A stretch of DNA of 58,403 nucleotides from a bacterium (GCA_016933415.1 JAFGAX010000140.1:1-58403), one strand, 5' to 3'; positions 6,620 through 54,691 are shown, numbered from the stretch's first letter. The notes: a model not told the origin generated them from the sequence alone. A program made the numbers and translations.

Positions 6620-6667
6620 GGGAATCCCCATTCGATGGTGAACGCTCATCCTCGGCCGGCGAAGCGG

Positions 6668-12233: not shown

Positions 12234-12278
12234 GGTATCCCCTGTTGTTTTACGGGACCGGGACAGGCACAGTCCGAC

Positions 12279-34354: not shown

Positions 34355-35518
34355 TCAAAGCAGAAGCTTGACTCCGAATCCGGCATCCATGCCGAAAAGT
34401 CCACTCCGGTTCCCGTTCGATTCGAGGTTGCCTCCGAGAAATTTGATACGCATGTCGCCGAGCGCGTTCTCCCACAGGGTAAACTGCACGCCGAACCCTG
34501 CGCCGGCCGCAAAACCGTCGAGATCGGAACGGGTAACGTAAAGCACTTTCACCGTCTGACGCGAATAGTAACGGGCGTCCGCCAGCAGAAAGAGACCGCC
34601 CTCCCGGAAGGCGATGACCTTGTAGACGGCGTTCATTTCCAGCTGGCTCCCCTGCGGTTTTCCCGGCGCCTCTTCGAGTTTGAGCCCCTGCAGGGTTTGA
34701 ATCTTGTCATTGAATCGGGCCGTGAACAGGGCCATCCAGTACTGCCGGTCGAATTCGCGGTACAGCCCGATGCCGATCGTGGTTTTCGCGCCTGCCTGGA
34801 ATATTTCCTTGTCGCCGAGCATATCCTTCTGATAGAACGTGTATTCCGCGTCCGCCATCAGCTTGAAATGATCGTCCAGACGGACGTCCAGGCCGATCTG
34901 TGCCGTCGCCTCGTCCCCAGGCTCGTACGCCTCGTCCGCGGTTTTGACGATGCCGTCGAATTCATACCGGTATTCAACCGGATTGTACCGGCCGCGCATC
35001 AGGTACTGGCCGCCGACACCGAGAACCGCCTTTTCGCCGAGGGGGAACGCCCCGGCCGCTCCGGCCCGGCCGCACAGGCCCTGTCCGTACACCGGGAGCG
35101 AGAAGCGGAAAAAATTCTGGCTGATGATCTGGCCGAGCTCGAATTCCTCGTTGTTCAGCCGGGTTTTGCCGGTGGGGACGCCCAGTCCGAAGTTCAGGAG
35201 AAGCGTCTTGTTCGGATGCAGGTAGGATCCCTGAATCCAGGTGTCCGATGTTCCGTTGATCTTGTAGCCGCCGTACCACCGGCTCATGGCGGGCGTATGC
35301 TGGATCGCGAGCCGGATATCCCGGCCCACGGGCGCGGTCAGCAGGACTGGAAAGGAGACCTGATTCACGACCCGGTGATCCCCGGCTTCCATCCGCCACA
35401 TCTGGACGGAGCAGGAAGTCGTCAGCGATGCCACGGGTTCCCGTGATGAAACGTCGGGTTGGGCGGACAGGATGCACGGCAGCAGGGCCGCGAATCCGAT
35501 CCAGGCTTTTCCTCTCAT
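34355..35518 (-). CDS. Predicted outer-membrane beta-barrel protein (module A); paralog of 44688..45854
   Basis: Signal peptide; amphipathic strands; SDTWIQG...GLGVPTGKTRL...FRFSLPVYGQGL is shared with the paralog. Confidence 0.72.
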   Translation of the reverse strand: MRGKAWIGFAALLPCILSAQPDVSSREPVASLTTSCSVQMWRMEAGDHRVVNQVSFPVLLTAPVGRDIRLAIQHTPAMSRWYGGYKINGTSDTWIQGSYLHPNKTLLLNFGLGVPTGKTRLNNEEFELGQIISQNFFRFSLPVYGQGLCGRAGAAGAFPLGEKAVLGVGGQYLMRGRYNPVEYRYEFDGIVKTADEAYEPGDEATAQIGLDVRLDDHFKLMADAEYTFYQKDMLGDKEIFQAGAKTTIGIGLYREFDRQYWMALFTARFNDKIQTLQGLKLEEAPGKPQGSQLEMNAVYKVIAFREGGLFLLADARYYSRQTVKVLYVTRSDLDGFAAGAGFGVQFTLWENALGDMRIKFLGGNLESNGNRSGLFGMDAGFGVKLLL

Positions 35519-35559
35519 GCATGCACCTCGCGCTCGTGAAATGCGGTTCGAAAGCCGGC

Positions 35560-38500
35560 TCATCGGACCAACAGCATTTTTCTGGAGGATGTCGATTCCC
35601 GGGTTTTGACCCGCGAAACGTAAAGACCGCTGGGAACGGGCCGGCCGGCGTCATCGCAGCCGTCCCAGACAGCCGTGTGATCCCCCGTTTTCTGGACCGC
35701 GTCGACCAGAATGCGTATTCTCTGACCGAGCGCGTTGAAAACCGACACTTCGACGGCTCCGTTCTTCGGCAGACGGTAGCGAATCGTGGTCTCCGGATTG
35801 AACGGATTCGGATAATTCTGGAAGACATGGAAAACGACCGGTTCCAGGGGGATGCCCTCGCTCTCGGCCCGGATAAACGCATCGGAACCCGCCACCAGCT
35901 TGAACAGCCGGACATCCGGAGCCTTGCCGCTCGTGTACGTTTTCACCCCGAGTTCGGTCATGTTGACGGAGGTGCCTTCGGCGAGGTCGAACAGGAAAGC
36001 TTTCCATCCCTCCGGCATGGACGAAAGCCATTTCCAGGTCAGCGTCACCGGCTCTTCCGGATTCCGGGTTTCGACGAACAGGCTCCAGACATGGCCCTCC
36101 GCACCGCTGTTCCGGATATCGGCCGCATAGGAGCCGGCATGGCGTCCCCAATCGCCGTGATCGAATCCGGCCGATATCCTCGGCTCAACCGGAGGCGGAT
36201 CGGGCCGGTCCCATAGGTCCCACCCGTCGCGGGCGTTTTTCCTGACGCCGGCATACTGGAAGCCGTCCTTCTGCCGCTTCCCGGCCGCAGAGAGCTGCAG
36301 CAACCATTCCCCGCTGCCGAGCGATTCCGCAAGCCCGGACCGTTTCGTGCCCGTCTTGCCGAAGCCGCGCGATTTCGGGGGAATGAACAGGGCGTGCGAC
36401 ACGGTGTCCGCATTGTAGATCCAGTAGCCCTTCCAGGGATCCAGGGTCTGCCAGTCCGATCCGTATCCCTCCTCCGGATTGTAGTAATAGAGTGTTCCGA
36501 TGGAATCCGAAGAGAGCGAGCAATCCTGCCATCGGACGGTGAAATTGAAGGGATTGCCGATCATGTTCCACCCCGGTTCCACGGCCACCCGGAAAACGGT
36601 GTCGAGGGAGACGGTGCGCGCACTCCCGAGATCGAAGGCCTTCTCGGTCGAGGAGACGAGCCAGTATGCGCGGGACGGTGCAAAATCGAAATACAACCGC
36701 GTCGTATCCGTGGCGTTGTAGGTGATGTACCGCTGGCGGAGCCGGTGCCACCAGAAAAGCCGCCACTGGAAGGGATCATAGGATCCGAAATCGTCCCTGT
36801 CCTCAAGCACGCTCCTCACCGTGGCGGTGTCGAGCTTCATGGGAACCGAGAACATCTGGAATTCCCGGGCGCGGAAGGTGATGCCGGATTTGAGGCCCAC
36901 GGTGCGTACGCTCCGGGACATCGGGTTCTGCTCCGGGTCGATTCCGGGCACGGTGAGGTCGCCCTTGTCGGTCCGGACTTCGAGCCAGTACTCGAACCCG
37001 CGTTCGGTCACCTGTTCTGCGGGGATGACGGTCTTGTACACCGAATTCGTCTGGCGTTCCGTCTGAACCGACCGGTAGCCGGTCTGTCCGCCCTGCCGGT
37101 AGTACAGAATCACCTGCTGGGCCTGAAGCACGGACGGAACGGCGAAAACCATGGTCATCATCGATCCGGCGGCCGGCGGGTCCGGGGTGACGGACTGAAC
37201 GCGTATGCCGTAGTCGATGACCTGGAATTCCCAGGACTCCCGGACGATGTCGGAAATCCGGACTTCGTCGATGGCGCCCTTGAAGTGTCCCGTGAACGAC
37301 ACGGAGTCATTCTGGGCCGCGCCGATGACCAGCGGAAGGAATTCCTGCCGCGGTGTGTAGGGAATCATGGGCCTTTCCCATACCTGCAGGGTGTCGACGA
37401 ACAGACGGCCCCGCTTGAGCAGATGATTGTAGGAGAAGGCCGCAAAATGCCAGGCCGCGTCGTTGACACGGGGGCCGCCCGGTCCGAAGTGTTCGATGGA
37501 AAGACGCCCCTCCGAATCGATGTCCATGCCGAAATTCCGTGAGCGGCGGCCGTCCGTGACCCCGAGGGAGAGCAGGGTCTGCGACAGCGTGTCCGTCTTG
37601 AAGTAGCATTCCAGCGTGAAACTCCGCCTGTCGTAGTCCATGATCAGGGCGGAATCGGCCGGGACGAGAATGCGGTCCCCGTCTCCGTCGAGCCAGATGG
37701 CGCGGCCGAAAAATCCGTCCGAGGCCCAGATCGCGTCGTTCTGCAGAATCCCGTGGCGGCCGTTTCCGGAGGCGTCCTCCGCGGTGTCGCTCTGCGCGGA
37801 ATTCAGGTGATACAAAGCGATCGTATGCGCGTCCGCGGCGTATTCCTTCCGTCCGGTGAATTCAGCGCCCCGGCCCTCGAGCGCGATGTTCACGGCGGGT
37901 GTTTCCGGATCGTTGCTTGCGACCGTAAGCATGGCCGTCTGCGTCACGTTGATCGTGTCCGGGCTGTACGTGACCGTCACCATCCGGGTCTGCAGGCGCC
38001 TCAGCGTGAAAGTGCGGACCGAATCGGGAATCGAGAACTGGGCGGTCATCCCCGAGATCGAGGTGACGACCAGATCCTGGTCGCCCGCGTTCCTCACCCA
38101 GAACGGAAAGGCGCGTTTTTCCGTTTTCAGCACGGAAGCGAAATTCAACGATACGGGAGCGGCCTCGATGGTCGGAGGCACCACATGGAATTCCCAGGCG
38201 GCCCGCGCGATCCTTGATATACGCACCTCGTCCAGCATGCCGGTGAAGGGATTCTCCCTGTTCAGGCCGGATCCGAGCCGCAGAACCGACGCCCGGGCCT
38301 GACGCAGCGGCCCGGCGAACGCCTTGCGGTCCCGGAGACCGTTGTTCAGATACAGTTTCAGCGTGTCGGATTCGAAGGTCACCGCCGCATGCATCCACTG
38401 GTTGCGCGGCGTGGCTGCGAGGCTCCCCGTTTTCAGGAGGGCGGCACCGCCCTGTCCGTTCCAGAACCGGGCGGTCAGACCTTCGGACGCGGCGTTGACG

Positions 38501-41500
38501 AGCGAAATTTCGACCGTCGCCGTGTCGCCGTTCCCCTGCTTGAGCAGAATGGAGGAGGTCCCCGGGAGCGTCTGGATGTTGAACCAGAATTCCAGGGTGA
38601 ACGCATCGTCCGGAACCGCCAGCCGGCCCGCGGTTGGAATGCGGACGGATCCGTTCGCGAAGCGCAGAGCCCGGCCGAAGCGGCCCGAATCCGTTCGCGT
38701 CACGCCCGTCTCGAGTGTGCCCTGAAGGCCCACTGCGGAGGAATCCCAGAGAGTCCTGGCGGTGTCGGCCGCCTCATCCATGTGGAAAAGGCCGAGGGTG
38801 AATGCATCCGCTGTGTACGGCGCAAACGACCGCTCCGCCAGGCCCGTTCCCGTCAGGGGAACCGCCCGGTTGGGCCAGAACGGGTCGTTGCTCCGGAAGG
38901 TGAGCTGTGCGGTCACCGCGCCCGTGGCCTGCGGATCGTATGTGACGTGAATCCTCCGGCTGGCGCCGGACGGAACCGTGAAATGCGTGGTATCCACCGA
39001 GAAGACCGAGGGAAGCGAGGAAACGATGTCCGTCACGACCAGATTGTCGATGCCCGTGTTCCCCACGGTCATCGCCAGGGTCCTTTCCCTGCCCAGCAGA
39101 ACGCTCTCGAAGGCCAGCGCCTCCGGGGAAAGGCCGATCCTCGCCAGGTTCACGTTATACTCCCACGGCTGACGCGCCGTCGAGGACAGCCGGATCTCGT
39201 CCAGCACGCCGTAGAAGGGCGTGCTCCGGTTCCAGCTCGATCCGATCAGCACGGACATCGTATCGGTTCCGGCGGGGCTGCCGCCGGCCGCGAGTGTTCC
39301 CGTAAAGGCGCGGACCGCGACGGCATTGCCGTTGACGTAGAGCCGGACGCTGTCGCCTTCAAATACTGCAGCCGCATGATACCACTGCCGTATCTTGAGC
39401 GCGCCCATGGAGGCGCTGGTCACGGAGAATGCCTGCTGCTGGGAGTTGAAAAACTGCCCCACCAGCGCGGCCGTGCTGTCGACGTAGAGATGGAACTGGG
39501 ACGAGGCGCCGGAGGCGCGCCGCATCAGAGTGCCCCTGCCGAGCGGGAGGCCCTGCAGATAGAACCACGCTTCGGCGGTGAGCCCACCCCAGGTCGGTTC
39601 GATTTTCACGCCGCCGGGCGGCCGTGCGGAAACCAGTCCGCTCTGTCCGTCGAAACGGAGCGCCGAACCCGGATCGAATTTACGCGTCTCCGTTTCGCGG
39701 GTCACGGATCCGGACAGAGTGCCGTTCATGCCGTTGCCGGAGGAATCGCGCGCGGTCAGGCCGGAGGATTCGTCGAGATGCCAGAGCCCCAGCGTCAGCG
39801 GATCAGCCGCATAGGGCCCGGCGGGAAGCGAGTTGATGCCGTTTCCCCGGAGCGGCACGGCCAGGACCGGATAGGTGGGGTCATTGCTCCGGATCTGAAG
39901 CAGACTCCCCTGCGTCAGCACCTCCACTCCGACCGGCGAGAAGGAGACATCGAGCGTGTCCGTCTGTCCGACGAACAGGGTGAACGGGCCGGACGGATCC
40001 ACCGTGATATGCGCATTGCCGGTCGTCACGGACTGAACCACCAGCGGCTGGCTGCCGAGATTGGAGAGGGCCAGGGGTACGGTGCGGGTCTGATTTGCCA
40101 GGACGTTTCCGAATTGGACGATGGACTGGGAGACCGCGATGCGCGAGCGCGTGACATGGTATTCCCAGGATTCGCGGGCAATGTTGGAAAGCCGGACTTC
40201 GTCCATGCGCCCCCGGAACACGGCGGTTCCGTACTGGTTGGCGCCGATGGCCAGCGGTTCGGTGGCCACGAATTTCAGCTTGTTCCGGACCTGCAGTCCG
40301 GCCTTCAGAACGCCGTTCAGGTACAGTTTCAGGGAATCTCCGTCCCAGGTCAGGGCCGCGTGATACCACTGGTTGACATTGAACAGGTCGATGGATCCGG
40401 AGGTCAGGGTGCGCGCGCCGGAGGCGTCCCAGACGCGTCCGATCAGCCCCACATCACCCGATCCCAGGGCCAGTTCAAACTGGGCATGGGAGTCGCTGCC
40501 GTGCCGGATCAGGACATAGTGATCCGCTGGAAGCGCATCCATATTGAACCAGCATTCGGCCGTGAAGGATTTCTCGCTGAAATTGAACAACGGATTCTGC
40601 GGAACGAGGATCCGGTCGGTTTCGGAGTCGAAACCGATCTGGCGGCCGTAACCGGAACGCTCGGAGTTTTCGCGGAACGGCGTGCCTGCCAGCTGGCCGT
40701 GCAGGCTGTTGCCCGAGGCGTCCGCGGCCGTGAGAACGCCGTCGCCCTCGTCGAAATGCCAGAGTCCCACCGTGAAATCGTCCGGTGTATAGGGGCCTTC
40801 GGTCACCAGGGCGGTGACCTCGGCCTGCAGGTTGATGTAGGCCGTCGGATTGGACGGATCGTTGGTGCTGATCTCGATGCGGTCGTCCTGACGGAACGGC
40901 CAGGTGTCATAGGACGGTGCAAAACGGATGACGAGCCGGAAGGTATCACCCGCCGCGATATCAAAACGCGTGGCGGAAAACGAATAGGTCGTGCGTTTGC
41001 TCTGGATGTTCGTCACCTTCAGGATGGATGTGCCGGTGTTCCGGATCAGGGCGGTGAGCGAACGGGAATAGTCCGGCGGGACGAGCCCGAAATTCAAAGT
41101 CGGGGGCGTGATGGTGATGGCCGGGCTGATGCGGCTTCGGAACAGCCAGAAACCGTAACGGCCGTCGGCCATGACGGCCTTTCCGTCCGAGTCGGAGACG
41201 CCGAGTCCCAGCGCCTCCCCCGTTGTCCGGTAATAGCCGACTTCCTTGATTTCCCCCGCGGTGGATGCGTCATAGATGCGGAATCCGTTGACCGCGTCGC
41301 TGACGTACAGCGTCTTCTCCCGGACCGTGATGCCGGTGGCCGTGCCGGCGATATCCTGCAGGAGGACGGCGTCGTTCGAAGTTTTCCAGAGAAGGAGGCC
41401 GTGCCTGCCGTTCGCGACGAATACCGTGTCGCCGATGACGTCCAATGCGCGGGCGTCCATGGGCATCGTGGCGCCCGCCGTCAGGGAGTCGGTCAGGGAA

Positions 41501-43143
41501 ACGCCGGTCAGGCTTCCGCCCGACTGGGTCAGCGCGTAGACATACACGGCGCCTGGAGTCGCGACGTAGGCCTTTGAACCGTGAACCTTCACGTCCAGCG
41601 CCGGACCGGCCGTACGGAGAGGACTCTGGGCCGTTTCGAAAATACTTCCGCTGATGTCCACGATCCGGACGCCGTCCCGGCCCGCGGCCATAAACGCGTA
41701 GGACCCGGAAAGCAGATCGACCCGGTGCACGGTGTCCGTGACGGCCGTGAAACGGCCGGACAGGACCGGGTTCACCGGATCGCTGATGCTGTAGATTCCC
41801 AGCCCCTGCACGCCGTTGGCCACATAGAGCCTGGAACCGAACACCCGGAGTCCCCGGGCCTGGCCGCCGGTGTCGAGCGTGCCCCTCAGGGGCAGACGGT
41901 CTATGTCCGGGTCGGCCGCGGTTCCGGTCGTGTCCACGATCTTGACGCCGGCCCATCCCGCCGCGACATAGGCGTACCGGCCGGACCAGTCCGCGTCCCG
42001 GCAGACGTCTCCGCCGGTCCGGATCGAATCGATCACCGACGGCTGGTAGCTTTCACGGGCATCGACGAACAGGAGACCGTTTTCCCGGTCGGACACGAAT
42101 AGCAGTTCCCCCGCCTTGAAACGCATCAGCGCGCTTCCAATGAACAGTGAATCCGCTTCGGCGGAGACGACGATACGCGTCGTTGTGCCGCGCGTGTCCA
42201 CATTCTGATAGGGCGGGCCCTTGAGATCCCTGGGATTCTGGATGTTGATCGGACAGAAAACGCCCTTGGAACCGCAGGCGAGATAGGCGTACTGGGGGGC
42301 GGGTTTGCCGCCGATGGTTTCCCAGGTGACGTCCAGTCCGAGCACTTCGGTGTAGGGGCTGTTCATCCACACGCCCATCTGGGTCATCAGGCGCGGATTC
42401 CGGATGTCCACCGTACGCAGGCTCCCGTACCCGGTCGCGACGTAGGCGACGGTGTCGATGACGGTGACCTGCACCGCGCGGGGAACCGGGACCTGGAATC
42501 CCGGATAAACCGTATTGAAAGCCAGACGGTCATAGACCGCCGGAGCCGTGGGATCAGTGACGTTCACGGAATAGAGCCCGGCCGAATCGGCGGCCACCAG
42601 CACCATGGTGTTGTCGACCGCCGGCGTATTCGCGACCACCCACACGCCCCGGGCGGCGCCGGCGGTGGCCAGCGTGCTCCGAAGCGCGGGCTGAGCGGGA
42701 TCGGACACGTCGACTACGGCCAGGCCGCCGGGCCCGTCCGCGATATAGGCCGTGTTCCCGTACTGCATCACGCCGTCAGCGGAGCCCGGCGTGTCGAGGA
42801 TTCCCACGACATCCCCGAAACGGCCGTCCACGGGGTCAAACGAGACCACCCGGAGCCCGGTGCCGCCGCATGCGATGTACACATGGCTGAGCGTATTCTT
42901 CGCCCACACGCCCTTGACGAGCCCGGGCATCAGAATGCTGTCGGACTTCGTGTATTCGCCGTGCTTGTTCTGATACACCTCAAGCATCGGGCCGCTGCTG
43001 ACGAACAGGAATCCCGCCCGTCGGTGGATGACTTCACACTGTCCGAGCGCCCATCGCCCGAGACGGCTGACGTTGGCCGCGGGCTGAGCGGCCGCCCATC
43101 CGATCGATCCGAACAGACATCCGAGAACGATCCATTTTCGCAT
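35560..43143 (-). CDS. Giant secreted protein A (2527 aa): LVIVD beta-propeller repeats + 4x(ASH/Ig + LamG) + unassigned domain + FlgD-Ig/T9SS-A-like CTD
   Basis: Signal MRKWIVLGCLFGSIGWAAA; LVIVD-type repeats (AYIADGPGGLAVVDVSDP); NFG...IRNTG Ig units; LWHFDE...DEVRLS LamG units; QNYPNPFNP CTD; start at 43143 after AGGAG. Confidence 0.88.
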   Translation of the reverse strand: MRKWIVLGCLFGSIGWAAAQPAANVSRLGRWALGQCEVIHRRAGFLFVSSGPMLEVYQNKHGEYTKSDSILMPGLVKGVWAKNTLSHVYIACGGTGLRVVSFDPVDGRFGDVVGILDTPGSADGVMQYGNTAYIADGPGGLAVVDVSDPAQPALRSTLATAGAARGVWVVANTPAVDNTMVLVAADSAGLYSVNVTDPTAPAVYDRLAFNTVYPGFQVPVPRAVQVTVIDTVAYVATGYGSLRTVDIRNPRLMTQMGVWMNSPYTEVLGLDVTWETIGGKPAPQYAYLACGSKGVFCPINIQNPRDLKGPPYQNVDTRGTTTRIVVSAEADSLFIGSALMRFKAGELLFVSDRENGLLFVDARESYQPSVIDSIRTGGDVCRDADWSGRYAYVAAGWAGVKIVDTTGTAADPDIDRLPLRGTLDTGGQARGLRVFGSRLYVANGVQGLGIYSISDPVNPVLSGRFTAVTDTVHRVDLLSGSYAFMAAGRDGVRIVDISGSIFETAQSPLRTAGPALDVKVHGSKAYVATPGAVYVYALTQSGGSLTGVSLTDSLTAGATMPMDARALDVIGDTVFVANGRHGLLLWKTSNDAVLLQDIAGTATGITVREKTLYVSDAVNGFRIYDASTAGEIKEVGYYRTTGEALGLGVSDSDGKAVMADGRYGFWLFRSRISPAITITPPTLNFGLVPPDYSRSLTALIRNTGTSILKVTNIQSKRTTYSFSATRFDIAAGDTFRLVIRFAPSYDTWPFRQDDRIEISTNDPSNPTAYINLQAEVTALVTEGPYTPDDFTVGLWHFDEGDGVLTAADASGNSLHGQLAGTPFRENSERSGYGRQIGFDSETDRILVPQNPLFNFSEKSFTAECWFNMDALPADHYVLIRHGSDSHAQFELALGSGDVGLIGRVWDASGARTLTSGSIDLFNVNQWYHAALTWDGDSLKLYLNGVLKAGLQVRNKLKFVATEPLAIGANQYGTAVFRGRMDEVRLSNIARESWEYHVTRSRIAVSQSIVQFGNVLANQTRTVPLALSNLGSQPLVVQSVTTGNAHITVDPSGPFTLFVGQTDTLDVSFSPVGVEVLTQGSLLQIRSNDPTYPVLAVPLRGNGINSLPAGPYAADPLTLGLWHLDESSGLTARDSSGNGMNGTLSGSVTRETETRKFDPGSALRFDGQSGLVSARPPGGVKIEPTWGGLTAEAWFYLQGLPLGRGTLMRRASGASSQFHLYVDSTAALVGQFFNSQQQAFSVTSASMGALKIRQWYHAAAVFEGDSVRLYVNGNAVAVRAFTGTLAAGGSPAGTDTMSVLIGSSWNRSTPFYGVLDEIRLSSTARQPWEYNVNLARIGLSPEALAFESVLLGRERTLAMTVGNTGIDNLVVTDIVSSLPSVFSVDTTHFTVPSGASRRIHVTYDPQATGAVTAQLTFRSNDPFWPNRAVPLTGTGLAERSFAPYTADAFTLGLFHMDEAADTARTLWDSSAVGLQGTLETGVTRTDSGRFGRALRFANGSVRIPTAGRLAVPDDAFTLEFWFNIQTLPGTSSILLKQGNGDTATVEISLVNAASEGLTARFWNGQGGAALLKTGSLAATPRNQWMHAAVTFESDTLKLYLNNGLRDRKAFAGPLRQARASVLRLGSGLNRENPFTGMLDEVRISRIARAAWEFHVVPPTIEAAPVSLNFASVLKTEKRAFPFWVRNAGDQDLVVTSISGMTAQFSIPDSVRTFTLRRLQTRMVTVTYSPDTINVTQTAMLTVASNDPETPAVNIALEGRGAEFTGRKEYAADAHTIALYHLNSAQSDTAEDASGNGRHGILQNDAIWASDGFFGRAIWLDGDGDRILVPADSALIMDYDRRSFTLECYFKTDTLSQTLLSLGVTDGRRSRNFGMDIDSEGRLSIEHFGPGGPRVNDAAWHFAAFSYNHLLKRGRLFVDTLQVWERPMIPYTPRQEFLPLVIGAAQNDSVSFTGHFKGAIDEVRISDIVRESWEFQVIDYGIRVQSVTPDPPAAGSMMTMVFAVPSVLQAQQVILYYRQGGQTGYRSVQTERQTNSVYKTVIPAEQVTERGFEYWLEVRTDKGDLTVPGIDPEQNPMSRSVRTVGLKSGITFRAREFQMFSVPMKLDTATVRSVLEDRDDFGSYDPFQWRLFWWHRLRQRYITYNATDTTRLYFDFAPSRAYWLVSSTEKAFDLGSARTVSLDTVFRVAVEPGWNMIGNPFNFTVRWQDCSLSSDSIGTLYYYNPEEGYGSDWQTLDPWKGYWIYNADTVSHALFIPPKSRGFGKTGTKRSGLAESLGSGEWLLQLSAAGKRQKDGFQYAGVRKNARDGWDLWDRPDPPPVEPRISAGFDHGDWGRHAGSYAADIRNSGAEGHVWSLFVETRNPEEPVTLTWKWLSSMPEGWKAFLFDLAEGTSVNMTELGVKTYTSGKAPDVRLFKLVAGSDAFIRAESEGIPLEPVVFHVFQNYPNPFNPETTIRYRLPKNGAVEVSVFNALGQRIRILVDAVQKTGDHTAVWDGCDDAGRPVPSGLYVSRVKTRESTSSRKMLLVR

Positions 43144-43293
43144 CGTGCAGTTTCTCCTCGAGTCCCGTTGCGTGGATCCGCCCCTCCGGTCGCTGAATGG
43201 ATCCGGGACGGATCGGGTGAATCCCAAATGCTTCCAGGGCCGATGCAGCCGGCCGTTTTCAGGCGCGGCCGTCTAGCCCGCAGCCGTGCCCCC

Positions 43294-44667: not shown

Positions 44668-44687
44668 CGGATCCTCCTAAAGCCCGA

Positions 44688-45854: not shown

Positions 45855-45889
45855 GGGAATCCCCTTCGAGACAGGGTGACGGCCGTTGG

Positions 45890-48800
45890 TCATTTCACGA
45901 AGACCAGTTTCCGGACCGCGACCTTGTCCAGGAATTCTAGCCGGTAGAGATAGATGCCGCTGGCGGCGCGGAGTCCGCGGTCATCGGTTCCGTCCCACAT
46001 CTCTTCGTGGCTGCCCGTCTTCTCATCCCGGTCGACCAGCACCTTCACCCGCTGGCCCATCAAGTTGTACACGGTGAGCCGGACGCGGCCGTTTTTCGGG
46101 AGCGCATAACGGATCGACGTCACGGGATTGAAGGGATTCGGGTAGTTCTGGGAGAGTCCGAACGCCACCGGCCGCAGCGGAACCTCGCTCCTCGATTCGA
46201 CGAATTCCCGGCTTCCCGCGAGGAGCTGGAAACGCCTCACGTTCGGCACGGATCTGCCGGTTTCCAGGCGGATTCCGTCCTTCTCGGACAGACACACCGA
46301 CGTGCCTTCGTCCACGTCCACCAGATAGGCCACCCATCCCTCCGGAAGGGTCCGGCTCACGGACCAGGAGAGGTCCACGGTCCGTCCGGCCAGACGCGTT
46401 TCCAGGGTCAGGTCCCAGACATACCCGGGCGCACCGGGCTGACGGATGTCGGCTGCGTACGCTCCCGGATTTTCCGACCAGTCGGCGTGCGTGGTGTACA
46501 GGGAGACGTAATCGCCGATCGGGGGCGGCTCGACACGGTCCATGCCGTCCCAGGTTTCCAGCGCGGAAGCGCGGACGCCGAAGAAATTATCCAGGTCCTT
46601 GGCATCCGGCGTCTGTGCGGAAAGCTTCAGGACCCACTCGCCTTCCGCCAGTTCGTGCAGAACGCCGCGCTTGGTCAGCGCCTGGCCGCTTTTGGCCTTC
46701 CGGGGCGGCATATAAATCGTCGAGGGCGCGGTCCGGTTGTTGTAGACGAAATACCCCTTCCAGGGTTCCAGTGTCGGCCAGTCCAGCCGGTATCCGGTGC
46801 CGTCGTAGGCGTACAGCGTGCCGATCGCATCGGAAGACAGGGCGCAGTCGTCCCAGGACACCGGGAACGGGAACGGAGACCCGACCATGTTCCACTGGGC
46901 CTGAAGCGTCCGCCTCGCGGGCGACACCGGCACGCTCATGCCGCTGTCCACGTCAAAGGTCTTCGCAGCGGACGTGATGACCCAGTAGGCGCGGCCGGGC
47001 GTGAAGTTGAAGGACGCACTGTCCGCCTCGGACAGGGTGTCCGAATACTCGATGTACGCCGTGTCCTTCCACGCGAACATGCGCCATTCATAGGGATCGT
47101 AGGCGCCGAGGTCGTCGCGCAGCACGTCGCGCACCGACGGCCGGGTCAGATTGCCGGGCACGGAGACCATCGAATACTTCTTCGCCGGAAGCGTGATTTC
47201 CGGGATGAGGGACCGGAACCGCACGGCGACGGAAACGGGCCGGTTCACCGGATCGAAGACCGGCTGCGTGACCGACACGGTTCCCTTGGTCTTGCGGGCG
47301 TACAGTTCCAGGCCGGACGCAGTGACCGCAGCCGCCGGAACCGTGGCCCGGTACCGCATGCGGTCGCCCGTCGTGGTCTGAACCGAACTCCAGGCGGAAT
47401 CGCCGGTGGTCCGGTAGAAGAGCGTGATGGTTTTCTCGTCCGTGTCCGCGGCGACGTTCACGTCCACGATCTGGCTGGATCCCGCGACCGGCGTGCCCTG
47501 CACGCTCAATTCCATGCCGCTTCCGGCGAACAGGAATTCCCAGGGCCTGCGCGCGACGTCCGAGATGCGGAGTTCGTCGATGGAGCCCTCGAAATAATCC
47601 GTGAACTGATTGACGCCTGTCGGCCGGGCGCCGATGACCAGAGCGCGGAGCGTGCGGGCGTCGGACGTACTGCCGAGCCAGGGCCCCTGGAATTGGATGG
47701 ACCCGTCTACGTAGAGCGTCCCGCGAAGGACCGACGGGTCGTACACGAACGCGGCATGGTGCCAGGCGTTGTCGGCCACCCATCCGTTGCCCCGGCCGAA
47801 TCCCGTGACGGACAGAAGCCCGTCATCGTCGATGGACAGGCCCCACGGGGCCGCCCCGCTCTGCACGTCCATGTAGAAGATCGACTGGCCGATCGTGTCT
47901 GTTTTAAAGAAGCACTCGACGCTGTAGCTGTCGGACGCCGGATGAAAGATCGAGTCTTCATCTTCCTGGGAAGTCATGGGAACGGACACGAGCTGATTCG
48001 TCCCGTTAAAACGGAGCGCCAGGTCGGCGGCGGAGGAAGGCTTGAAGTAGCCGTCGACCCGGACCGGTTCGTTCACGGCGGTTCCGTTTAATTCGTTCCC
48101 GCTGGCATCGCTGACCGTCACGCCCGTTGTTTCATTGAAATGATACAGGGCCAGCGTGTGTTCGTCCGTTGTATACGGCACCTTGGCGCGGTAATCGACC
48201 GCGGTGGCGGCGATTGGAAGGGTTTTCGTGCGCTGGGTCGGATCGTTGCATGAGACGACCAGCGTATCCGGCTGGGATCCGGCCGCATTGGGCGTGAAGG
48301 TGACGGACACGTTGCGGCTTGCCCCCATCGGGATTTCGAACACCAGGGGTTCCACGCTGAAAACGTTCCGTTTCCACTGAATTCCCGTGATCTTCAAGGG
48401 CTGATCACCGGTGTTGAGTATCTGGAACGACGCCGTCTCGGACAAGCCGAGCAGGACCTGGGTGAACGACAGACCCGTCGTGGTCGAGTAATATTTCGGG
48501 CCGGTCACGTTGAACTCCCAGTACTGACGGGCCACCGAGGAAACCCGGAATTCATCGATGTAACCGTTGAAACCGTGATTGAGGCCGTAATTGCCGCCCA
48601 CGGCCACGGATTCGGAGGACGGCCTCAGGCCGCCGGTCAGGGCCGTGGAATCCACGCACACCCCGTTCATATACAGCCGCAGTTTGTTGAGATCCCACGA
48701 AAGGGCGACGTTGTAATAGGTGGCGTTCATCGTGGAGTCCGGCGGTCCGTACAGGACGACCGGCTGACCCTGGGCATTGTAGACCCGGGCCACCAGTCCC

Positions 48801-51800
48801 CGGCCTGGATTCAGGCTGTCGCCGTAGAGAATTTCGTACTGGCAGGAGGCGTTCCGGCCGCGCCGGACGAGCACGTCATAATCGCCCTCCGCCGGACGCG
48901 AAGTTGCGCGGAACCAGGTCTCGATCGTGAACGCCGAGGACGCAAAGTCCAACGCCGCATGATAGGGCAGTTCCATCCAGCCCGTGGTGCCGTCGAAATA
49001 CAGCGCGGAAGCGCCGTACCGCGGGAACAGGATGTTCCGGGACACGCCGGGCCTGCGCAGAAAACCGGTGAGGCCGCTGGCCGAGGTGTCCGTCACGGCG
49101 GTGTCGCCCCGAACCCAGTCCATGTGCCAGAGGCCGGTGGTGTATCCGTCGACCTCATAGTGTGTGACCGCGGTCTGCTCGTATCCCGTACCGGTCAGCA
49201 ATACGGAACGCAGTCCGCCGTTGACCGGGTCCGTGGACTGGATGTTCATCAGGGCGTTGAAGACGCCTGTGGACTGGGGCGAGAAGCGCACCTGCACCGT
49301 CACCCGGCCGCCGGGTCCGATGGCGAAAACGGAGGGCGACACTGTAAACTGCGGATTCGTGGTGCTGATGCCCGACACCCAGAGTTTTCCCGCGCCGCGG
49401 TTGCGGATTTCATAATACTGGACCCGGGAGTAACGGACCAGCACCTTCCCGAAGTTGACGCTTTCCGCGGCCAGCTGAATGCGGCCCGTGCTGACGTTGA
49501 ATTCCCACGCGTCCCGAGCGACTCCGGAAATGCGGAACTCGTCGATGTAACCGTCGAATCCGTTCTCGCCGTCCGCCGCGCCGAGCGTGCCGGTCAATCC
49601 GGTGTTCGGAATCGAGACGGCCACTTCCAGTGTGTCCACGGGATCGCCGTTGACGTAGAGAATCAGCCGGTTGTTCGTTTTGAACACCAGGGCCGCATGG
49701 TTCCAGTCGGAAGTCTGGAGCGCATGCACGGTGTCTGAAACGACCTCGACCGGCTCGCCCGCGACCGGCATGGTCAGGCCGTACACACCGCGCTTGGTGG
49801 CGGTCAGGTCCTTGACTCCCAGTTCGAAGATCGTGCGTTCACCCTGGGCCAGCCGGAAAATGGTTTTGCTGCCGGTCTGGGGCCGGACCGGGCGGAACCA
49901 GGTGTCGATCGTGAATCCCGTCGCTTCCGGAAGCCGGGCCGCGGAATCGAGTTTCACCTGCACCCGGTCGGAAGCCTCCAGTATCAGCGCTCCGCCGAAA
50001 CCGGCTTTCGCCGAGTCCGCGGAAAGGAGCCGGCCGCCGTAATTCCTTCCGTCCAGGTAGCCGTACATGGAGGAATCGGGCACAAGCGTGTCGCCCGGCA
50101 GGGTTTCCATCCGGTACAGCAGGTACGTGTAATAATCCGGCGTGTACGGCGCCAGGGGCGTGTCGCTGACGCCCAGACCCGTTACGCGCACGGTCACTTC
50201 AGAATTGTCCGCATCGCTGACAAGGGTCAGGATGTCATCGTAGAACTGGGCGGCCGTGGGATAAAAATAGACGCCCAGCGTATAGGACCGGTTCGGATAA
50301 ATCGTGATCGGCATGGCCGTGCCCGTTTTGAAATTGCCCGTCGCGGAACTCACGGACTGGATGTGCACGACCCGGGTGCCGGTGTTCTCGAGGTTGAGAT
50401 AGAGGGTGCGGGTCCGGTACTGAACCACGGTCCCGAATTCAAGAACGGACGACCGGGTCGCCAGATGGCCGGTGAAATTCGCCTTGAACAGATAGAGACC
50501 GGCTTCGCCGTCAGCCACGGCAATGGTATCGCCGGACAGATCAACGGCCGCGCTGAATCCCGCGGTATGGGCATATCCCACCTCGACCGGGGACTGGGAC
50601 ACGGAGAGAATCCGCACCGTGCCGTCTCCGTCGGCCAGGATCGCCGCGTCCCCGCTCATCCGGATATCGGCGGCCATGCCGGGCGTGTTGTAGGACATGC
50701 CGGTGACGGCGCGCGGCGCGCCGGCGTTCGTCACGTCATAGACGCGCATGCCGTTCACGCCGTCCGCGATGTACAGCGTCCGTGCGTCCGCGCCGAGGTC
50801 CGAGGCCTGGGAGTTGTTGGTGCCCTCGCAGGACGTCATCAGCGAGCGATCGTCCAGGTTGACCACCTGGACCGCCGCATCCGTTGAAACAAAGGCCACA
50901 TGCCGCGTTTCGTCCACTTCGATGGAACGGGCCGGAAGCGTGCCGAGGGAAACGGTCCCCAGGAAAGTCGGATGACGGGGATCGAGGATGTTGTAGATGT
51001 GCACGCCCCCGGATCCGCCGGCGATGACCGCGCGGTTCCCGTCAAAGGCCACGTCGTGCGCCTCGTCCGCGACGGGGATGTTGGCGAGCATGCGCGGGCT
51101 CTGCGGATTCCGGACGCTCATCACCTTGACCCCGTGGGGGCCGTTCGAGACAAGCAGCAGGGTGTCGCGGACCGCGACACCCTGGCAGTATTCAAGCGTG
51201 TCGACATGCGCCAGAACCGGAATATCCGTGAGGGTCGCGGCCGGCCGGTTCAGAATCCAGAGACCGGATTGGCGGCCCGCGGCGAACAGCACGTTCCCGC
51301 GGAAAGCCGCGTCGACAAAGGCATCGCCTGTCTGGACCGAACGGATCAGGGAGGGCTGCGGGTTGAAGACGTTCAGCATGAGCAGTCCGCCTCCGCAGTC
51401 GGACACGAAAGCGGTGTTGGGCGCCGTGCTCGGCATGCTGTGCGTGATCCGGAGAGCCGATCCGTCCGTCGCCAGGCCTGCGATCTCGTTCGGGACGTCG
51501 CTGACATCCAGCACGCGGACGCCGTACAGCGAATCGGCCAGATAAGCCCGGGAAGACTGGACGAACACGTCGGTGATCGCGACACGCTCCTCTTCCCCGG
51601 GAACCCAGGTGCGGTACACCGCCATGGCCGTGGGATTGGTGATGCTCACTTCGCTGAGCCCGCCGGCTCCGGCGGCCACATAGGCGATGGTCGGAGACAG
51701 AAAGAGCCGGGACGCGGCGCCCGAGAGACGGAGCGCGCCCAGGCGGATGATTTCACTGTCCTGGGTCACGTCGAGCGCCCAGATGCCCGCGGTGTCCGCG

Positions 51801-52375
51801 GCCACATAGGCGACGGTCCGAATGCCCCCGCCGCCAGCCCAGAGGTCGACCTTGACATCGCGGACGATGCGGTTGTTCAGGGTGAACACACCGACCGAAT
51901 ACGGGGAGACAGGGGACGCGACGTTGACGACGCGCAGACCGCCCGGTCCATCCGCGACATAGGCCCGGTTTTCCCACACGAACACGCCCATCGCCGTTCC
52001 GGGCGTGTCGTACGAACCCCTCAGAAAGGGGGCCGTCGGGCTGGAGATATCGACGATCTGCAGGCCGGCGCCGTTGCAGGCGACATACGCCTTCTGATCG
52101 ACGGCGTAGATGTCCTCAACGACATCCGGAAGCAGCAGGCTTCCCTTCTTCTCCAGGTACGGCAGGGTGCCCTTGACTTCGTAGATTTCGAGGTAGGCGC
52201 CGTTGCCCGCCAGCACGTAATTATCGGCCACATAAGCGGCGCGGTTCGGCCCGGAGGCATTCCGTCCGATTTCGGTCATGTTGAGCGTCTCCAACGTCTG
52301 CTGGGCGTTGGCCGGAAGCGCGAGTGCGGCCGCCGCCAAAACGGCCCACATCGCGAAAACGGTCGCTCTTTTCAT
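45890..52375 (-). CDS. Giant secreted protein B (2161 aa): LVIVD repeats + 3x(ASH/Ig + LamG) + unassigned domain + FlgD-Ig/T9SS-A-like CTD
   Basis: Start MKRATV after AAGGAG; same architecture as 35560..43143 with one fewer Ig+LamG unit; LSQNYPNPFNP...RKLVFVK. Confidence 0.88.
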   Translation of the reverse strand: MKRATVFAMWAVLAAAALALPANAQQTLETLNMTEIGRNASGPNRAAYVADNYVLAGNGAYLEIYEVKGTLPYLEKKGSLLLPDVVEDIYAVDQKAYVACNGAGLQIVDISSPTAPFLRGSYDTPGTAMGVFVWENRAYVADGPGGLRVVNVASPVSPYSVGVFTLNNRIVRDVKVDLWAGGGGIRTVAYVAADTAGIWALDVTQDSEIIRLGALRLSGAASRLFLSPTIAYVAAGAGGLSEVSITNPTAMAVYRTWVPGEEERVAITDVFVQSSRAYLADSLYGVRVLDVSDVPNEIAGLATDGSALRITHSMPSTAPNTAFVSDCGGGLLMLNVFNPQPSLIRSVQTGDAFVDAAFRGNVLFAAGRQSGLWILNRPAATLTDIPVLAHVDTLEYCQGVAVRDTLLLVSNGPHGVKVMSVRNPQSPRMLANIPVADEAHDVAFDGNRAVIAGGSGGVHIYNILDPRHPTFLGTVSLGTLPARSIEVDETRHVAFVSTDAAVQVVNLDDRSLMTSCEGTNNSQASDLGADARTLYIADGVNGMRVYDVTNAGAPRAVTGMSYNTPGMAADIRMSGDAAILADGDGTVRILSVSQSPVEVGYAHTAGFSAAVDLSGDTIAVADGEAGLYLFKANFTGHLATRSSVLEFGTVVQYRTRTLYLNLENTGTRVVHIQSVSSATGNFKTGTAMPITIYPNRSYTLGVYFYPTAAQFYDDILTLVSDADNSEVTVRVTGLGVSDTPLAPYTPDYYTYLLYRMETLPGDTLVPDSSMYGYLDGRNYGGRLLSADSAKAGFGGALILEASDRVQVKLDSAARLPEATGFTIDTWFRPVRPQTGSKTIFRLAQGERTIFELGVKDLTATKRGVYGLTMPVAGEPVEVVSDTVHALQTSDWNHAALVFKTNNRLILYVNGDPVDTLEVAVSIPNTGLTGTLGAADGENGFDGYIDEFRISGVARDAWEFNVSTGRIQLAAESVNFGKVLVRYSRVQYYEIRNRGAGKLWVSGISTTNPQFTVSPSVFAIGPGGRVTVQVRFSPQSTGVFNALMNIQSTDPVNGGLRSVLLTGTGYEQTAVTHYEVDGYTTGLWHMDWVRGDTAVTDTSASGLTGFLRRPGVSRNILFPRYGASALYFDGTTGWMELPYHAALDFASSAFTIETWFRATSRPAEGDYDVLVRRGRNASCQYEILYGDSLNPGRGLVARVYNAQGQPVVLYGPPDSTMNATYYNVALSWDLNKLRLYMNGVCVDSTALTGGLRPSSESVAVGGNYGLNHGFNGYIDEFRVSSVARQYWEFNVTGPKYYSTTTGLSFTQVLLGLSETASFQILNTGDQPLKITGIQWKRNVFSVEPLVFEIPMGASRNVSVTFTPNAAGSQPDTLVVSCNDPTQRTKTLPIAATAVDYRAKVPYTTDEHTLALYHFNETTGVTVSDASGNELNGTAVNEPVRVDGYFKPSSAADLALRFNGTNQLVSVPMTSQEDEDSIFHPASDSYSVECFFKTDTIGQSIFYMDVQSGAAPWGLSIDDDGLLSVTGFGRGNGWVADNAWHHAAFVYDPSVLRGTLYVDGSIQFQGPWLGSTSDARTLRALVIGARPTGVNQFTDYFEGSIDELRISDVARRPWEFLFAGSGMELSVQGTPVAGSSQIVDVNVAADTDEKTITLFYRTTGDSAWSSVQTTTGDRMRYRATVPAAAVTASGLELYARKTKGTVSVTQPVFDPVNRPVSVAVRFRSLIPEITLPAKKYSMVSVPGNLTRPSVRDVLRDDLGAYDPYEWRMFAWKDTAYIEYSDTLSEADSASFNFTPGRAYWVITSAAKTFDVDSGMSVPVSPARRTLQAQWNMVGSPFPFPVSWDDCALSSDAIGTLYAYDGTGYRLDWPTLEPWKGYFVYNNRTAPSTIYMPPRKAKSGQALTKRGVLHELAEGEWVLKLSAQTPDAKDLDNFFGVRASALETWDGMDRVEPPPIGDYVSLYTTHADWSENPGAYAADIRQPGAPGYVWDLTLETRLAGRTVDLSWSVSRTLPEGWVAYLVDVDEGTSVCLSEKDGIRLETGRSVPNVRRFQLLAGSREFVESRSEVPLRPVAFGLSQNYPNPFNPVTSIRYALPKNGRVRLTVYNLMGQRVKVLVDRDEKTGSHEEMWDGTDDRGLRAASGIYLYRLEFLDKVAVRKLVFVK

Positions 52376-52422
52376 CTTCGTCTCCTTTTGCATTCGGTGT
52401 CTGAAATCCGTTCGGAAAATGC

Positions 52423-53844
52423 CTAGCGCCGGCTCGGCGGGCTCGGGGGCCCGGGCAGAACCCAGCGGGTCGGCGTGTAGGGCGGCGCCGGCGCCGCGGG
52501 CAGTGCGCCCGGAAGGATGTTCGGCCCGCCCGCCGCCGCGAAATCGGTATCCGCCATGTCGCGCGCATCATTGCCCGGGAGAAAACCCGCATCCATCAGA
52601 AAGCCGAGCTCCTCGAGCCGGCCCGCGGTCGACACGCTGTAGAGACCGGCGGCCGCGCCGGTCACGGGGCCGCGGCCGGTTCCGGAAATCATGCGTTCGA
52701 CCACCGAGTTCATCGCGGCGAACTGCGAAGCGTGCGCGGCGCGATACACCGCCGGATCCGCCACCCAGTCCTGGGCCAGGAAGAAATCGGGATCCAGGGC
52801 CAGCGCTTTCCTGAAACTGCCCTGCGCCGACTCGAATTTGCCGGCATCCATGTCGTTCAACCCGTTACAGTAATGGATAAAAGCCTTGATATCCCGGGTG
52901 CCGGAGGCCGATATCAGCCTCTCCTGTTCCGCATTCAACCGGATGCCCATGTCCGCGATCAGGCGCCGGACCATCCGCTTTTCAAGAGCGATCAGATCCT
53001 GAAGCGCTCCCGTCATCTTGACATATTCCGGGGTTCTGGATTCGGAGACATACACCGAACCGACGCTCAACTCGATGCGCTGATTCGGGAGAATCTTGAA
53101 TGATCCTTTCACCAGCGTCCGGGAACCGAGCAGTCTGGCGACCTGGACCGACCGGCTGTCCTGGGCCATGGCCTGAACCGTCCAACCCATGGATTCCATG
53201 GTGCGCTGAACCTTATCGCGGTCCGCGACGAGAAGCGGCTCCACGCTGGACAGATCGTTGATGATCAGCTGGGCCAGTCCCTTCTGGAGGGGCGCCCAGG
53301 CGCTTTTCGAGAGATTCTGGAAGTAGAGGACGGCCACGGATTCCTTCGGAAGCGAGGCGAGATTGACCGACGCCTCATCGGCCGCGGCCTTCCGCGCGTT
53401 CTGGCCGGCCAGACGCCGGTCGCACCAGTGCGACCGCCAGCGGAGAAATTCCCGGTATGGATCGGACTGGTCGAGCAGGGCGTACCGGCGGTAGATTTCG
53501 CCCGCTTTGTCGAGCTTGTTCTGCGATTCATAACTGCCGCCGAGATAGTACAGCGCCTTGCCGTACTGGGGCGTCCTGCGGACCACCTGTCCGAGAACGC
53601 GCGCCGCCGTGTTGTAGCGCTTCATATGCCAGAGCACCACGCCGACCCCGGTCATGGCCTCGGGCTCATACGCGATCACCCGTTTGCCGTTCTGCATGCG
53701 GGGATTGAGCGCTTTGAGGTAGATCTGCAGCGCCTGCCTATATTCTTTTTGAGAAATATAAGTCTCGGCCTGCCGGTAAGGAGCGACCGCGCATCCCAGA
53801 AACACGGACGCGACGACCACTCCCACCACTCTCCAGCATTTCAT
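52423..53844 (-). CDS. TPR + CsgG/TolB-N/FlgO-like lipoprotein (module B)
   Basis: Lipobox VFLG-C; AVLYFQN...PLQKGLAQLIINDL...VADRDKV...GSRTLVKGSF; GFLPG and PGPPSPP tail; paralog of 43294..44667. Confidence 0.78.
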   Translation of the reverse strand: MKCWRVVGVVVASVFLGCAVAPYRQAETYISQKEYRQALQIYLKALNPRMQNGKRVIAYEPEAMTGVGVVLWHMKRYNTAARVLGQVVRRTPQYGKALYYLGGSYESQNKLDKAGEIYRRYALLDQSDPYREFLRWRSHWCDRRLAGQNARKAAADEASVNLASLPKESVAVLYFQNLSKSAWAPLQKGLAQLIINDLSSVEPLLVADRDKVQRTMESMGWTVQAMAQDSRSVQVARLLGSRTLVKGSFKILPNQRIELSVGSVYVSESRTPEYVKMTGALQDLIALEKRMVRRLIADMGIRLNAEQERLISASGTRDIKAFIHYCNGLNDMDAGKFESAQGSFRKALALDPDFFLAQDWVADPAVYRAAHASQFAAMNSVVERMISGTGRGPVTGAAAGLYSVSTAGRLEELGFLMDAGFLPGNDARDMADTDFAAAGGPNILPGALPAAPAPPYTPTRWVLPGPPSPPSRR

Positions 53845-53931
53845 AGGGCCTCCTAAGCTCCTGTGATTCCCCCTGAGGCGCGCGGCGAAACCCGAGAGGG
53901 AGATGTGTGAGGTTTGGCTGAAACGAATGCG

Positions 53932-54609
53932 TTATCTTGTTTTCGAAAGACGGCTCAGCCGGTCCTTCGCAGGCCCGAAATCGGGCTCCATGGCCAGGGC
54001 TTTCCGATAGCATTCCGCGGCGCGGACTGCATCGCCCCGATCTTCGAATTCGACCCCCTTGGAAAACTGGGTGAGCGCGTCAAGGCTGACGTTTCCCGGC
54101 GGCCGGTCATCAGGCGCCGTCAGCCTGAGTTCAAGATCCTTGAGCACCTTGCGGCTCAGCTTGCGCACGAGGGAAAGCACGTCGCGGGTTTTTCCGGTCG
54201 CCTCTCCCGCCTGCAGGGTGAGCCCGGTCTCCACTTCCACGATGCGCACATCCATCCGCATCTTGCCGTCCGGCATGACCAGGTAACCGCCGAATACCAG
54301 GTTCTGCGCGCCGGCCATCCGCCCCACCTGGACGACGTTTTCTTCGTCCGTGACGCCCGCCTGGGCCAGTTTCAACTCGTCCACCAGGCGCTGGAGTTTT
54401 CGCCGCTCGACAATGCGGACGGAAGGACAGCGGCCGAGCTCCGTGGCCATCATCTGGCCGAGGCCTTTGGACAGGGGCTGAACTGCCTCCGAATTGAAAA
54501 AGCTGTTGTTTTCGAAATCCAGAACGGCCAGCGTCCGGACTGGTTCCGAAGCCTGGACGCGAAACGTCAGGAAAGTCGCAAGAAGAAGGAAAAAAGGAAC
54601 AACTCGCAT
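53932..54609 (-). CDS. Short soluble CsgG/TolB-N/FlgO-like protein with a C-terminal TPR
   Basis: SPI-type signal with no lipobox Cys; LAVLDFEN...PLSKGL...IVERRKLQRLVDEL...GAQNLVFGGY...RIVEVETG; AAECYRKALAMEPDF. Confidence 0.78.
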   Translation of the reverse strand: MRVVPFFLLLATFLTFRVQASEPVRTLAVLDFENNSFFNSEAVQPLSKGLGQMMATELGRCPSVRIVERRKLQRLVDELKLAQAGVTDEENVVQVGRMAGAQNLVFGGYLVMPDGKMRMDVRIVEVETGLTLQAGEATGKTRDVLSLVRKLSRKVLKDLELRLTAPDDRPPGNVSLDALTQFSKGVEFEDRGDAVRAAECYRKALAMEPDFGPAKDRLSRLSKTR

Positions 54610-54662
54610 TGGATTCCGGCTCCAAAAATAGTCAACCATCTGAAACCAATTGAGTTAGCTAT

Positions 54663-54691
54663 ACTTTAATAAAAATTTACATCTTTGTCAA
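54663..54691 (-). promoter_or_regulatory. Near-consensus sigma70 promoter of the 20 kb operon
   Basis: TTGACA-17 nt-TAAAGT in AT-rich DNA about 55 nt upstream of the first gene. Confidence 0.65.

Follow-up and report, generated by a model that had tools for sequence, protein, structure and literature searches.

A candidate outer-membrane docking module for giant type IX secretion system cargo in an uncultured bacterium

What task is served by an operon that encodes, in two paralogous copies, a lipoprotein, a giant secreted protein and an outer-membrane beta-barrel? The question arises from positions 34355-54691 of a 58,403-nt stretch of bacterial DNA (GCA_016933415.1 JAFGAX010000140.1:1-58403, hereafter the window), which belongs to a metagenome-assembled genome (MAG) of 2.7 Mb and 76% completeness from an uncultured lineage outside the Bacteroidota. 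Knowledge of type IX secretion systems (T9SS) comes almost entirely from two Bacteroidota models, in which cargo with a type A C-terminal domain (CTD) travels via PorV and is attached to lipopolysaccharide (LPS), and type B cargo uses private barrels of the PorP/SprF type. PorV carries type A CTD cargo in general (PMC10994853), PorP binds both its cargo and PorE, a protein that contains tetratricopeptide repeats (TPR) (PMC9143113), and in type B loci the gene for the PorP/SprF barrel directly follows that of the cargo (PMC12618676). In the operon described here, type A cargo is tied at the genetic level to private barrels that belong to an unrelated, uncurated family and to a new kind of lipoprotein that combines TPR with a domain resembling the N-terminal domain of TolB (TolB-N). 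We hold with moderate confidence that each module is a cargo-specific outer-membrane docking or hand-over platform that works with the general T9SS, and the gene set is probably an accessory module of that system and not a self-sufficient exporter.

All seven genes are encoded on the minus strand, in the order short TolB-N/TPR protein (53932-54639, 235 aa, probable start Met11 at 54609), lipoprotein B (52423-53844, 473 aa, lipobox FLGC), giant B (45890-52393, 2167 aa), barrel B (44688-45893, 401 aa, probable start 45854), lipoprotein A (43294-44667, 457 aa, lipobox FSGC), giant A (35560-43227, 2555 aa from a TTG codon or 2527 aa from the probable start Met29 at 43143) and barrel A (34355-35563, 402 aa, probable start 35518). 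They follow a sigma-70-like promoter on the same strand (54663-54691), read from the sequence as TTGACA (54691-54686), a 17-nt spacer and TAAAGT (54668-54663). Each barrel gene lies directly downstream of a cargo gene; the two overlap by 4 nt if the first ATG is taken and lie 35-41 nt apart if one takes the starts that alignments of homologues favour. Signal peptides were recognised by eye in the short protein, the barrels and the giants (Sec-type, MKRATVFAMWAVLAAAALALPANA/QQ in giant B and MRKWIVLGCLFGSIGWAAA/QP in giant A), and lipoboxes in both lipoproteins. The three gene types are pairwise paralogous, with 36% identity between the lipoproteins (E 6e-96), 34% between the barrels (E 7e-51) and 35% across approximately 1570 columns between the giants, and the GC content of the operon genes (0.61-0.65) is like that of the remaining window. 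Comparison with a locus from a congeneric MAG (L019; loci and contigs are cited by our own numbers) gave ratios of nonsynonymous to synonymous substitution (dN/dS) of 0.08-0.19 for all seven genes, indicative of purifying selection, and both copies of the triplet are therefore maintained by selection. The layout described by the first-pass annotation, an earlier reading of this DNA that had proposed seven co-oriented genes in this order behind this promoter, a giant A of 2527 aa, pairwise paralogy, host-like GC and two intact triplets, is thus borne out.

The same annotation had proposed that the triplet was duplicated as a unit. Maximum-likelihood trees of the barrel, the lipoprotein and the region of the giants that precedes the CTD (the pre-CTD region), each built from 19 complete modules, all contain the same three clades: clade B comprises module B of the window, L019, the first module of L016, L022 and L050; clade A comprises module A of the window, the second module of L016, L024, L026, L031, L052 and L055; and clade C holds distant families. 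This congruence agrees with the proposal and implies that the duplication of the whole triplet took place before the families of this order diverged, and that the parts have stayed together since.

The giants themselves have the features of ordinary T9SS cargo. Giant B consists of a signal peptide, an LVIVD region, three repeats of a choice-of-anchor-D immunoglobulin-like (Ig; ASH) domain followed by LamG_3, the pre-CTD region and a type A CTD, and giant A has the same architecture with four Ig-LamG_3 repeats. Pfam and NCBIfam searches bear out the LVIVD, Ig and LamG_3 domains, and Pfam FlgD_ig also scored above its cut-off in the giants. The T9SS cargo CTDs that the first-pass annotation had recognised (45893-46171 in giant B and 35563-35841 in giant A, minus strand) match TIGR04183 with 36.0 and 33.0 bits, respectively, against a cut-off of 23. 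Type A models alone match in the Pfam and NCBIfam searches, and no type B CTD (TIGR04131/CHU_C) was found in the giants. A special CTD subclass for module cargo was considered and rejected, as these CTDs are 50-55% identical among themselves and 50-54% identical to CTDs of unrelated open reading frames (ORFs) of the same genome. Since the module CTDs are generic, the giants are ordinary type A cargo, and what sets the system apart is found in the part of the giants that precedes the CTD and in the genes around them.

One such feature is the pre-CTD region, which spans approximately 450 residues between the last LamG domain and the CTD, is conserved in both paralogues and in all relatives, and belongs to no family in a Pfam search. 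Our profile of this region (A4) matches giant B at 46184-47524 (minus strand; E 2.3e-201) and giant A at 35854-37215 (minus strand; E 4.3e-202). The profile also weakly matches (E 1.4e-3; motif WNMIGNPF versus NLIGNPYPS) a segment that immediately precedes the CTD of RemA (PDB 8gl6, chain D). RemA/RemZ of Flavobacterium johnsoniae resemble the giants in being large lectin-type adhesins with a type A CTD, but the similarity is marginal and confined to part of the pre-CTD region, so that we take it as a weak lead at the level of sequence; we know of no private barrel for RemA.

The type A CTD of the giants terminates 81 ORFs of the source genome, only three of which possess the pre-CTD region. 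The first-pass annotation had suggested a check for T9SS core genes: PorU scores far above its cut-off (828 versus 420 bits), SprA matches partially (225 bits summed versus a cut-off of 200, at model positions 1343-2299 only), a PorV-like protein on contig C117 falls just below the cut-off (243 versus 250 bits), and the GldM model matched neither this genome nor any control genome. The CTD common to 81 ORFs, together with PorU, the partial SprA and the PorV-like protein, makes the gene set look like a T9SS accessory and not an independent exporter, and the dedicated export apparatus that had first been suggested is on these grounds probably not what it represents. Four barrels of the family are encoded in this genome, three of which adjoin pre-CTD cargo and all four of which are associated with a lipoprotein.

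One of these loci, contig C136:1-5504, carries a third cargo module, consisting of a lipoprotein truncated at the contig end, a cargo protein of 1,223 aa and a barrel. The cargo has WxGT-type repeats that read like a Reg_prop-type propeller, followed by Ig, pre-CTD and CTD. Its pre-CTD lacks the first ~110 positions, which places the core of the region at about 345 aa.

The lipoproteins have an architecture that, to judge from our searches, has no named counterpart. Lipoprotein B has a lipobox followed by TPR, a TolB-N-like domain, further TPR and a disordered Pro-rich tail, and the AlphaFold2 (AF2) model of lipoprotein A (pLDDT 82) has the same organisation, with TPR at residues 25-156, an alpha/beta domain at 170-300, TPR at 307-390 and a disordered tail; TPR families were among the Pfam and NCBIfam matches of the operon products. 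Besides TPR proteins, Foldseek retrieved the TolB N-terminal domain (rmsd 3.5 Å over ~140 columns) and the lipoprotein GNA1162 as structural neighbours of lipoprotein A. The short protein aligns with lipoprotein A (residues 164-363, 30% identity), and thus corresponds to the TolB-N/TPR core; it has a signal peptide without a lipobox Cys and is predicted to be soluble and periplasmic. Its orthologues head single and double modules elsewhere (L019, L022, L024, L026, L031, L048, L050 and others).

The label "CsgG-like", which the first-pass annotation gave to these proteins, holds in part. Pfam CsgG does match, with E 3.4e-12 for the short protein and E 6.9e-7 for lipoprotein A, but within the N-terminal half of the model only (positions 10-97 or 35-97 of 210), and the alpha/beta domain modelled for lipoprotein A is compact, has no transmembrane hairpins and is TolB-N-like. 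The fold shared by CsgG, TolB-N and GNA1162 (PDB 4hrv) is common to the central domain of the lipoproteins and the short protein, whereas the membrane hairpins and curli genes that accompany CsgG and the beta-propeller of TolB are absent here, and the domain is flanked by TPR.

The tails of the lipoproteins (43294-43500 and 52423-52650; pLDDT <50) carry a conserved motif, R.Q...AGFLPG.D.R, and a Pro-rich end, in which P424, G425 and P451 are invariant among 26 homologues. Possibly, this tail acts as a linear docking peptide. Among distant homologues of the lipoprotein, one carries the label candidate division KSB1.

The barrel constitutes a large family that has no curated entry in Pfam or NCBIfam. 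Our family profile matches barrel A with E 7.5e-121. The family comprises at least 1,395 clusters at 50% identity (E <= 1e-3), 503 of them with E <= 1e-30, and the named members are "hypothetical protein" of uncultured bacteria. The AF2 model of barrel B (pLDDT 81) contains, by our reading of its secondary-structure string, 16 strands, and its two termini lie on the periplasmic side; the most conserved motif, PTGKT...FRFRLPVFGQG, would be situated in the model in a long helix-bearing loop after strand 5, reminiscent of porin L3. Foldseek against the PDB retrieved generic barrels only (FadL, OmpG and porins; TM ~0.45), and thus gave no functional clue, and a profile search of the PDB with the barrel family yielded a marginal stretch of OprC (E 0.07).

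An assignment of the barrel to PorP/SprF or PorV was rejected for lack of homology by Pfam, NCBIfam and hhalign. The PorP/SprF models PF11751/TIGR03519 match neither of the two barrels of the window, hhalign of the barrel against the PorP_SprF protein of L014 gave a probability of 0.2%, and one of 39 barrel-family members has a weak PorP/SprF match (E 1e-3). No PF11751 match was detected anywhere in the source genome, although the same search matched none of the control genomes either. Similarly, the barrels of the window are not among the 11 matches of the PorV model NF033710 in the genome, and hhalign against the genome's own PorV gave 0.7%. Neither the seven products nor the barrel family match SusC/TonB plug, TonB box, POTRA or autotransporter beta-domain models in Pfam or NCBIfam, or the DUF560/Slam barrel, and none of the curlin-related families CsgA, B, E and F was found by Pfam or NCBIfam among the seven products.

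The first-pass annotation did not recognise a named system here; our profile searches place the barrel, the lipoprotein architecture and the pre-CTD region in none, and we found no description of this gene set in the literature. The co-occurrence of the three families in conserved order, for which it had proposed a search, is seen far beyond the source genome. The double module recurs in L016 (45-52% identity), L019, L022 and L050; a single module in the order short protein, lipoprotein, giant, barrel is present in L024, L026, L031, L052 and L055; and rearranged modules were observed in L013, L038, L039, L040 and L044. L013, L038 and L039 encode two TolB-N/TPR proteins, a barrel and a CTD-bearing Ig cargo of 1,209 aa, and L040 and L014 encode a lipoprotein, an FGE-sulfatase-domain protein, an Ig giant of 2,800-3,010 aa, a barrel and a short protein. 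The FGE-sulfatase-domain insert, which separates the lipoprotein from the giant, is at L040:418-1557 and L014:1-894, and belongs to what we take to be the Pfam family of PorK, GldK and GldJ.

In a census of 167 genomes of the source phylum, the barrel profile was found in 120 (72%) and the pre-CTD profile in 136; by our hand tally, 106 genomes have both, 14 the barrel only, 30 the pre-CTD only and 17 neither. A hand count among the matches listed gave ~80 pairs in which barrel and pre-CTD genes are adjacent on the same contig and strand. The lipoprotein gene is next to the barrel gene, or parted from it by the cargo gene alone, in all 20 barrel loci sampled across the families of the phylum, and barrel and lipoprotein are neighbours in nearly all loci with readable flanks.

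A second class of loci, which we term class II, pairs the same components with a different partner. It is represented by C128:2625-6815 of the source genome and by L042, L043, L051, L053, L054, L058 and L060, and has the order short TolB-N/TPR protein, lipoprotein, barrel, partner lipoprotein. The latter contains a conserved domain of ~120 aa (V.VMVLD.S.Y...W.E..KL...F..V..Q.L.I.G..A.G.V.GV.GLN), and the remainder is variable, with a LamG-like insert (our own reading), Ig, PEGA or other domains and no CTD. Pfam found neither cohesin nor any other family in these partner lipoproteins, and a relationship of the conserved domain to the pre-CTD region or to the module lipoprotein was rejected (hhalign probability <=1%). 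In L059 the short protein, lipoprotein and barrel are in the same order and no downstream gene was called there. Since lipoprotein and barrel are found both with and without pre-CTD cargo, the two form the invariant core of the module and it is the partner that varies. The variable partners resemble the situation of type B cargo in F. johnsoniae, where some cargo proteins come with a linked PorP/SprF shuttle and the orphans have one in common (PMC12618676).

We propose the following model. The giants would be Sec-exported surface adhesins or lectins, by virtue of their LVIVD region and Ig/LamG repeats, and would cross the outer membrane via the general T9SS of the cell, using their ordinary type A CTD. 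Each would be provided with a private platform, comprising the ~16-strand barrel encoded downstream and the periplasm-facing TPR/TolB-N/TPR lipoprotein encoded upstream, and the soluble TolB-N/TPR paralogue would be common to both modules. The task of the barrel would be to accept or retain its cognate giant at the cell surface, most plausibly through contact between the pre-CTD region of the giant and the conserved loop of the barrel, and the TPR/TolB-N proteins would scaffold or chaperone this step from the periplasmic side. We infer that the components associate physically, that the giants are anchored at the surface and that recognition is cognate. In this respect the cargo-cognate surface-anchoring apparatus envisaged in the first-pass annotation remains the best reading.

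The closest parallels follow the same logic, that of a large T9SS cargo encoded directly upstream of its own barrel, as in PorE-PorP-PG1035 of Porphyromonas gingivalis and SprF-SprB, among further pairs of a PorP/SprF-like shuttle with type B cargo, of F. johnsoniae (PMC9143113, PMC12618676). Like the PorE-PorP/SprF systems, the present one includes a TPR-containing periplasmic or lipoprotein partner and comprises several paralogous cargo/barrel pairs with orphan cargo per genome, and a role in hand-over from the translocon and in surface anchorage is proposed for it by analogy. The differences are equally clear. The barrel has no detectable homology to PorP/SprF, as described above, and the cargo has a type A CTD instead of type B. 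PorE combines TPR with a beta-propeller, CarboxypepD_reg and OmpA_C, whereas the lipoprotein has only TPR and the TolB-N-like (partial CsgG) domain, without a counterpart to the peptidoglycan-binding OmpA_C. An extra soluble TolB-N/TPR paralogue is present, and the host is not a member of the Bacteroidota. With PorV, the barrels would share the handling of type A CTD proteins by an outer-membrane barrel, but PorV is general, the barrels are cargo-linked and they do not match the PorV model.

Several observations weigh against the docking model. In distant families the pre-CTD region occurs in up to 10 copies alongside 1-3 barrels, and the 30 genomes in which it was found without a detectable barrel indicate that it is not strictly tied to one. 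Conversely, lipoprotein and barrel occur without pre-CTD cargo in 14 genomes and in the class II loci. In the Bacteroidota, type A cargo is anchored via PorU and A-LPS and needs no private barrel. Neither PorP/SprF nor PorV shows homology to the barrel that Pfam, NCBIfam or hhalign could detect. To these may be added the missing match to GldM, in a MAG that is 76% complete and with a model that failed to match any control genome.

More tentatively still, the lipoprotein/barrel pair might represent, in addition to PorV and PorP/SprF, an as yet undescribed third class of T9SS cargo carrier or anchor that is widespread in T9SS-bearing uncultured phyla, recognises a docking domain (the ~350-450-aa pre-CTD region or the ~120-aa class II domain) and mounts proteins on the surface, with paralogous modules giving each giant its own dock. 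If the module does anchor or hand over its cargo, it would be a new class of T9SS component, would suggest how uncultured relatives of the Bacteroidota display adhesins of several thousand residues and would give a function to many outer-membrane proteins of one large family that are now listed as hypothetical.

Among the alternatives, a role in nutrient capture is unlikely, though it accommodates part of the evidence. The giants would in that case bind glycans at the surface, the barrel would serve as a porin-like channel through which the bound material is taken up, and the TPR lipoprotein would have an accessory part, forming a TonB-independent analogue of Sus systems. The LamG/ConA-like lectin domains of the giants, the porin-like layout of the barrel (16 strands and a long conserved loop after strand 5, by our own count from the model) and its nearest PDB folds (FadL, OmpG and porins) would all fit this role, as would the ORF that follows the barrel on C136, which has the look of a GH3/PA14-type glycosidase. 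However, the N-terminal domains of the cargo vary freely (LVIVD/LamG, ASH Ig arrays or the propeller-like WxGT repeats), whereas barrel, lipoprotein and pre-CTD region are conserved and co-diverge; moreover, the conserved neighbours of the module include neither glycoside hydrolases nor transporters, and the class II partners are unrelated lipoproteins.

We consider it similarly unlikely that barrel and TPR lipoprotein constitute an autonomous, Slam-like translocon that exports the adjacent giant or lipoprotein independently of SprA. The comparison is suggested by Slam of Neisseria, in which a periplasmic TPR part and a barrel are likewise encoded beside the surface protein that they serve, and the class II partner is even a lipoprotein. 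The pairing of lipoprotein and barrel with CTD-less lipoprotein cargo in class II loci, the 14 genomes with a barrel and no pre-CTD cargo, and a sub-threshold match of TPR_Slam to lipoprotein A (23.7 bits versus a cut-off of 35.2), which recurs in precomputed Pfam lists of several homologues, are consistent with such a translocon. In Slam, however, TPR and DUF560 barrel form one polypeptide and not two proteins, and no DUF560 match was obtained for the barrel. The giants, moreover, with 2,100-2,500 residues and folded Ig/LamG domains, bear a bona fide T9SS CTD in a genome with T9SS parts, and a ~16-strand barrel with an inward-looking conserved loop appears small for folded cargo of this size.

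Trans-envelope signalling, with the surface giant as receptor and the barrel and TolB-N/TPR proteins as a relay to cytoplasmic regulators, is very unlikely. In the distant lineage of L013, L038 and L039 (at about 2400-7600) the genes immediately ahead of the module encode an FHA/SLT protein, a PP2C phosphatase and a PEGA Ser/Thr kinase, and a trypsin-like protease is encoded behind it; this linkage hints at regulatory coupling not seen in the window. Among the weak matches obtained with the lipoprotein as query (E 1e-5 to 3e-9) there are also proteins that join kinase or response-regulator (Trans_reg_C) domains to TPR repeats. Against signalling, no kinase is linked to the module in the window or in order-level relatives, and upstream of the operon only a helix-turn-helix-like ORF (54961-55257, minus strand, 98 aa, ArsR-type from its sequence alone) is present, parted from the operon promoter by a hairpin and T-run that we read as a putative terminator. 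Finally, an oligomeric CsgG-like pore of the curli or holdfast (HfaB) type, formed by the lipoproteins as the first-pass annotation implied, is close to refuted and was rejected, because the Pfam CsgG matches that favour it cover part of the model only, the AF2 model of lipoprotein A, with its TolB-N/GNA1162-like fold, has no transmembrane hairpins and no CsgA, B, E or F family was found among the seven products.

Further T9SS-related genes were noted in the window and elsewhere in the genome. Two other ORFs of the window, at 2078-3250 and 10572-12278 (both minus strand), also end in the type A CTD, and with 81 ORFs that carry this domain the T9SS secretome is very large in relation to a genome size of roughly 3.5 Mb. 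Besides the PorV candidate on C117, which adjoins an ORF with the appearance of an M6-type peptidase, approximately 10 PorV-like paralogues are encoded on contigs C156, C214, C158, C217, C72, C74, C220 and C170, with E-values of 1e-7 to 1e-25 to NF033710.

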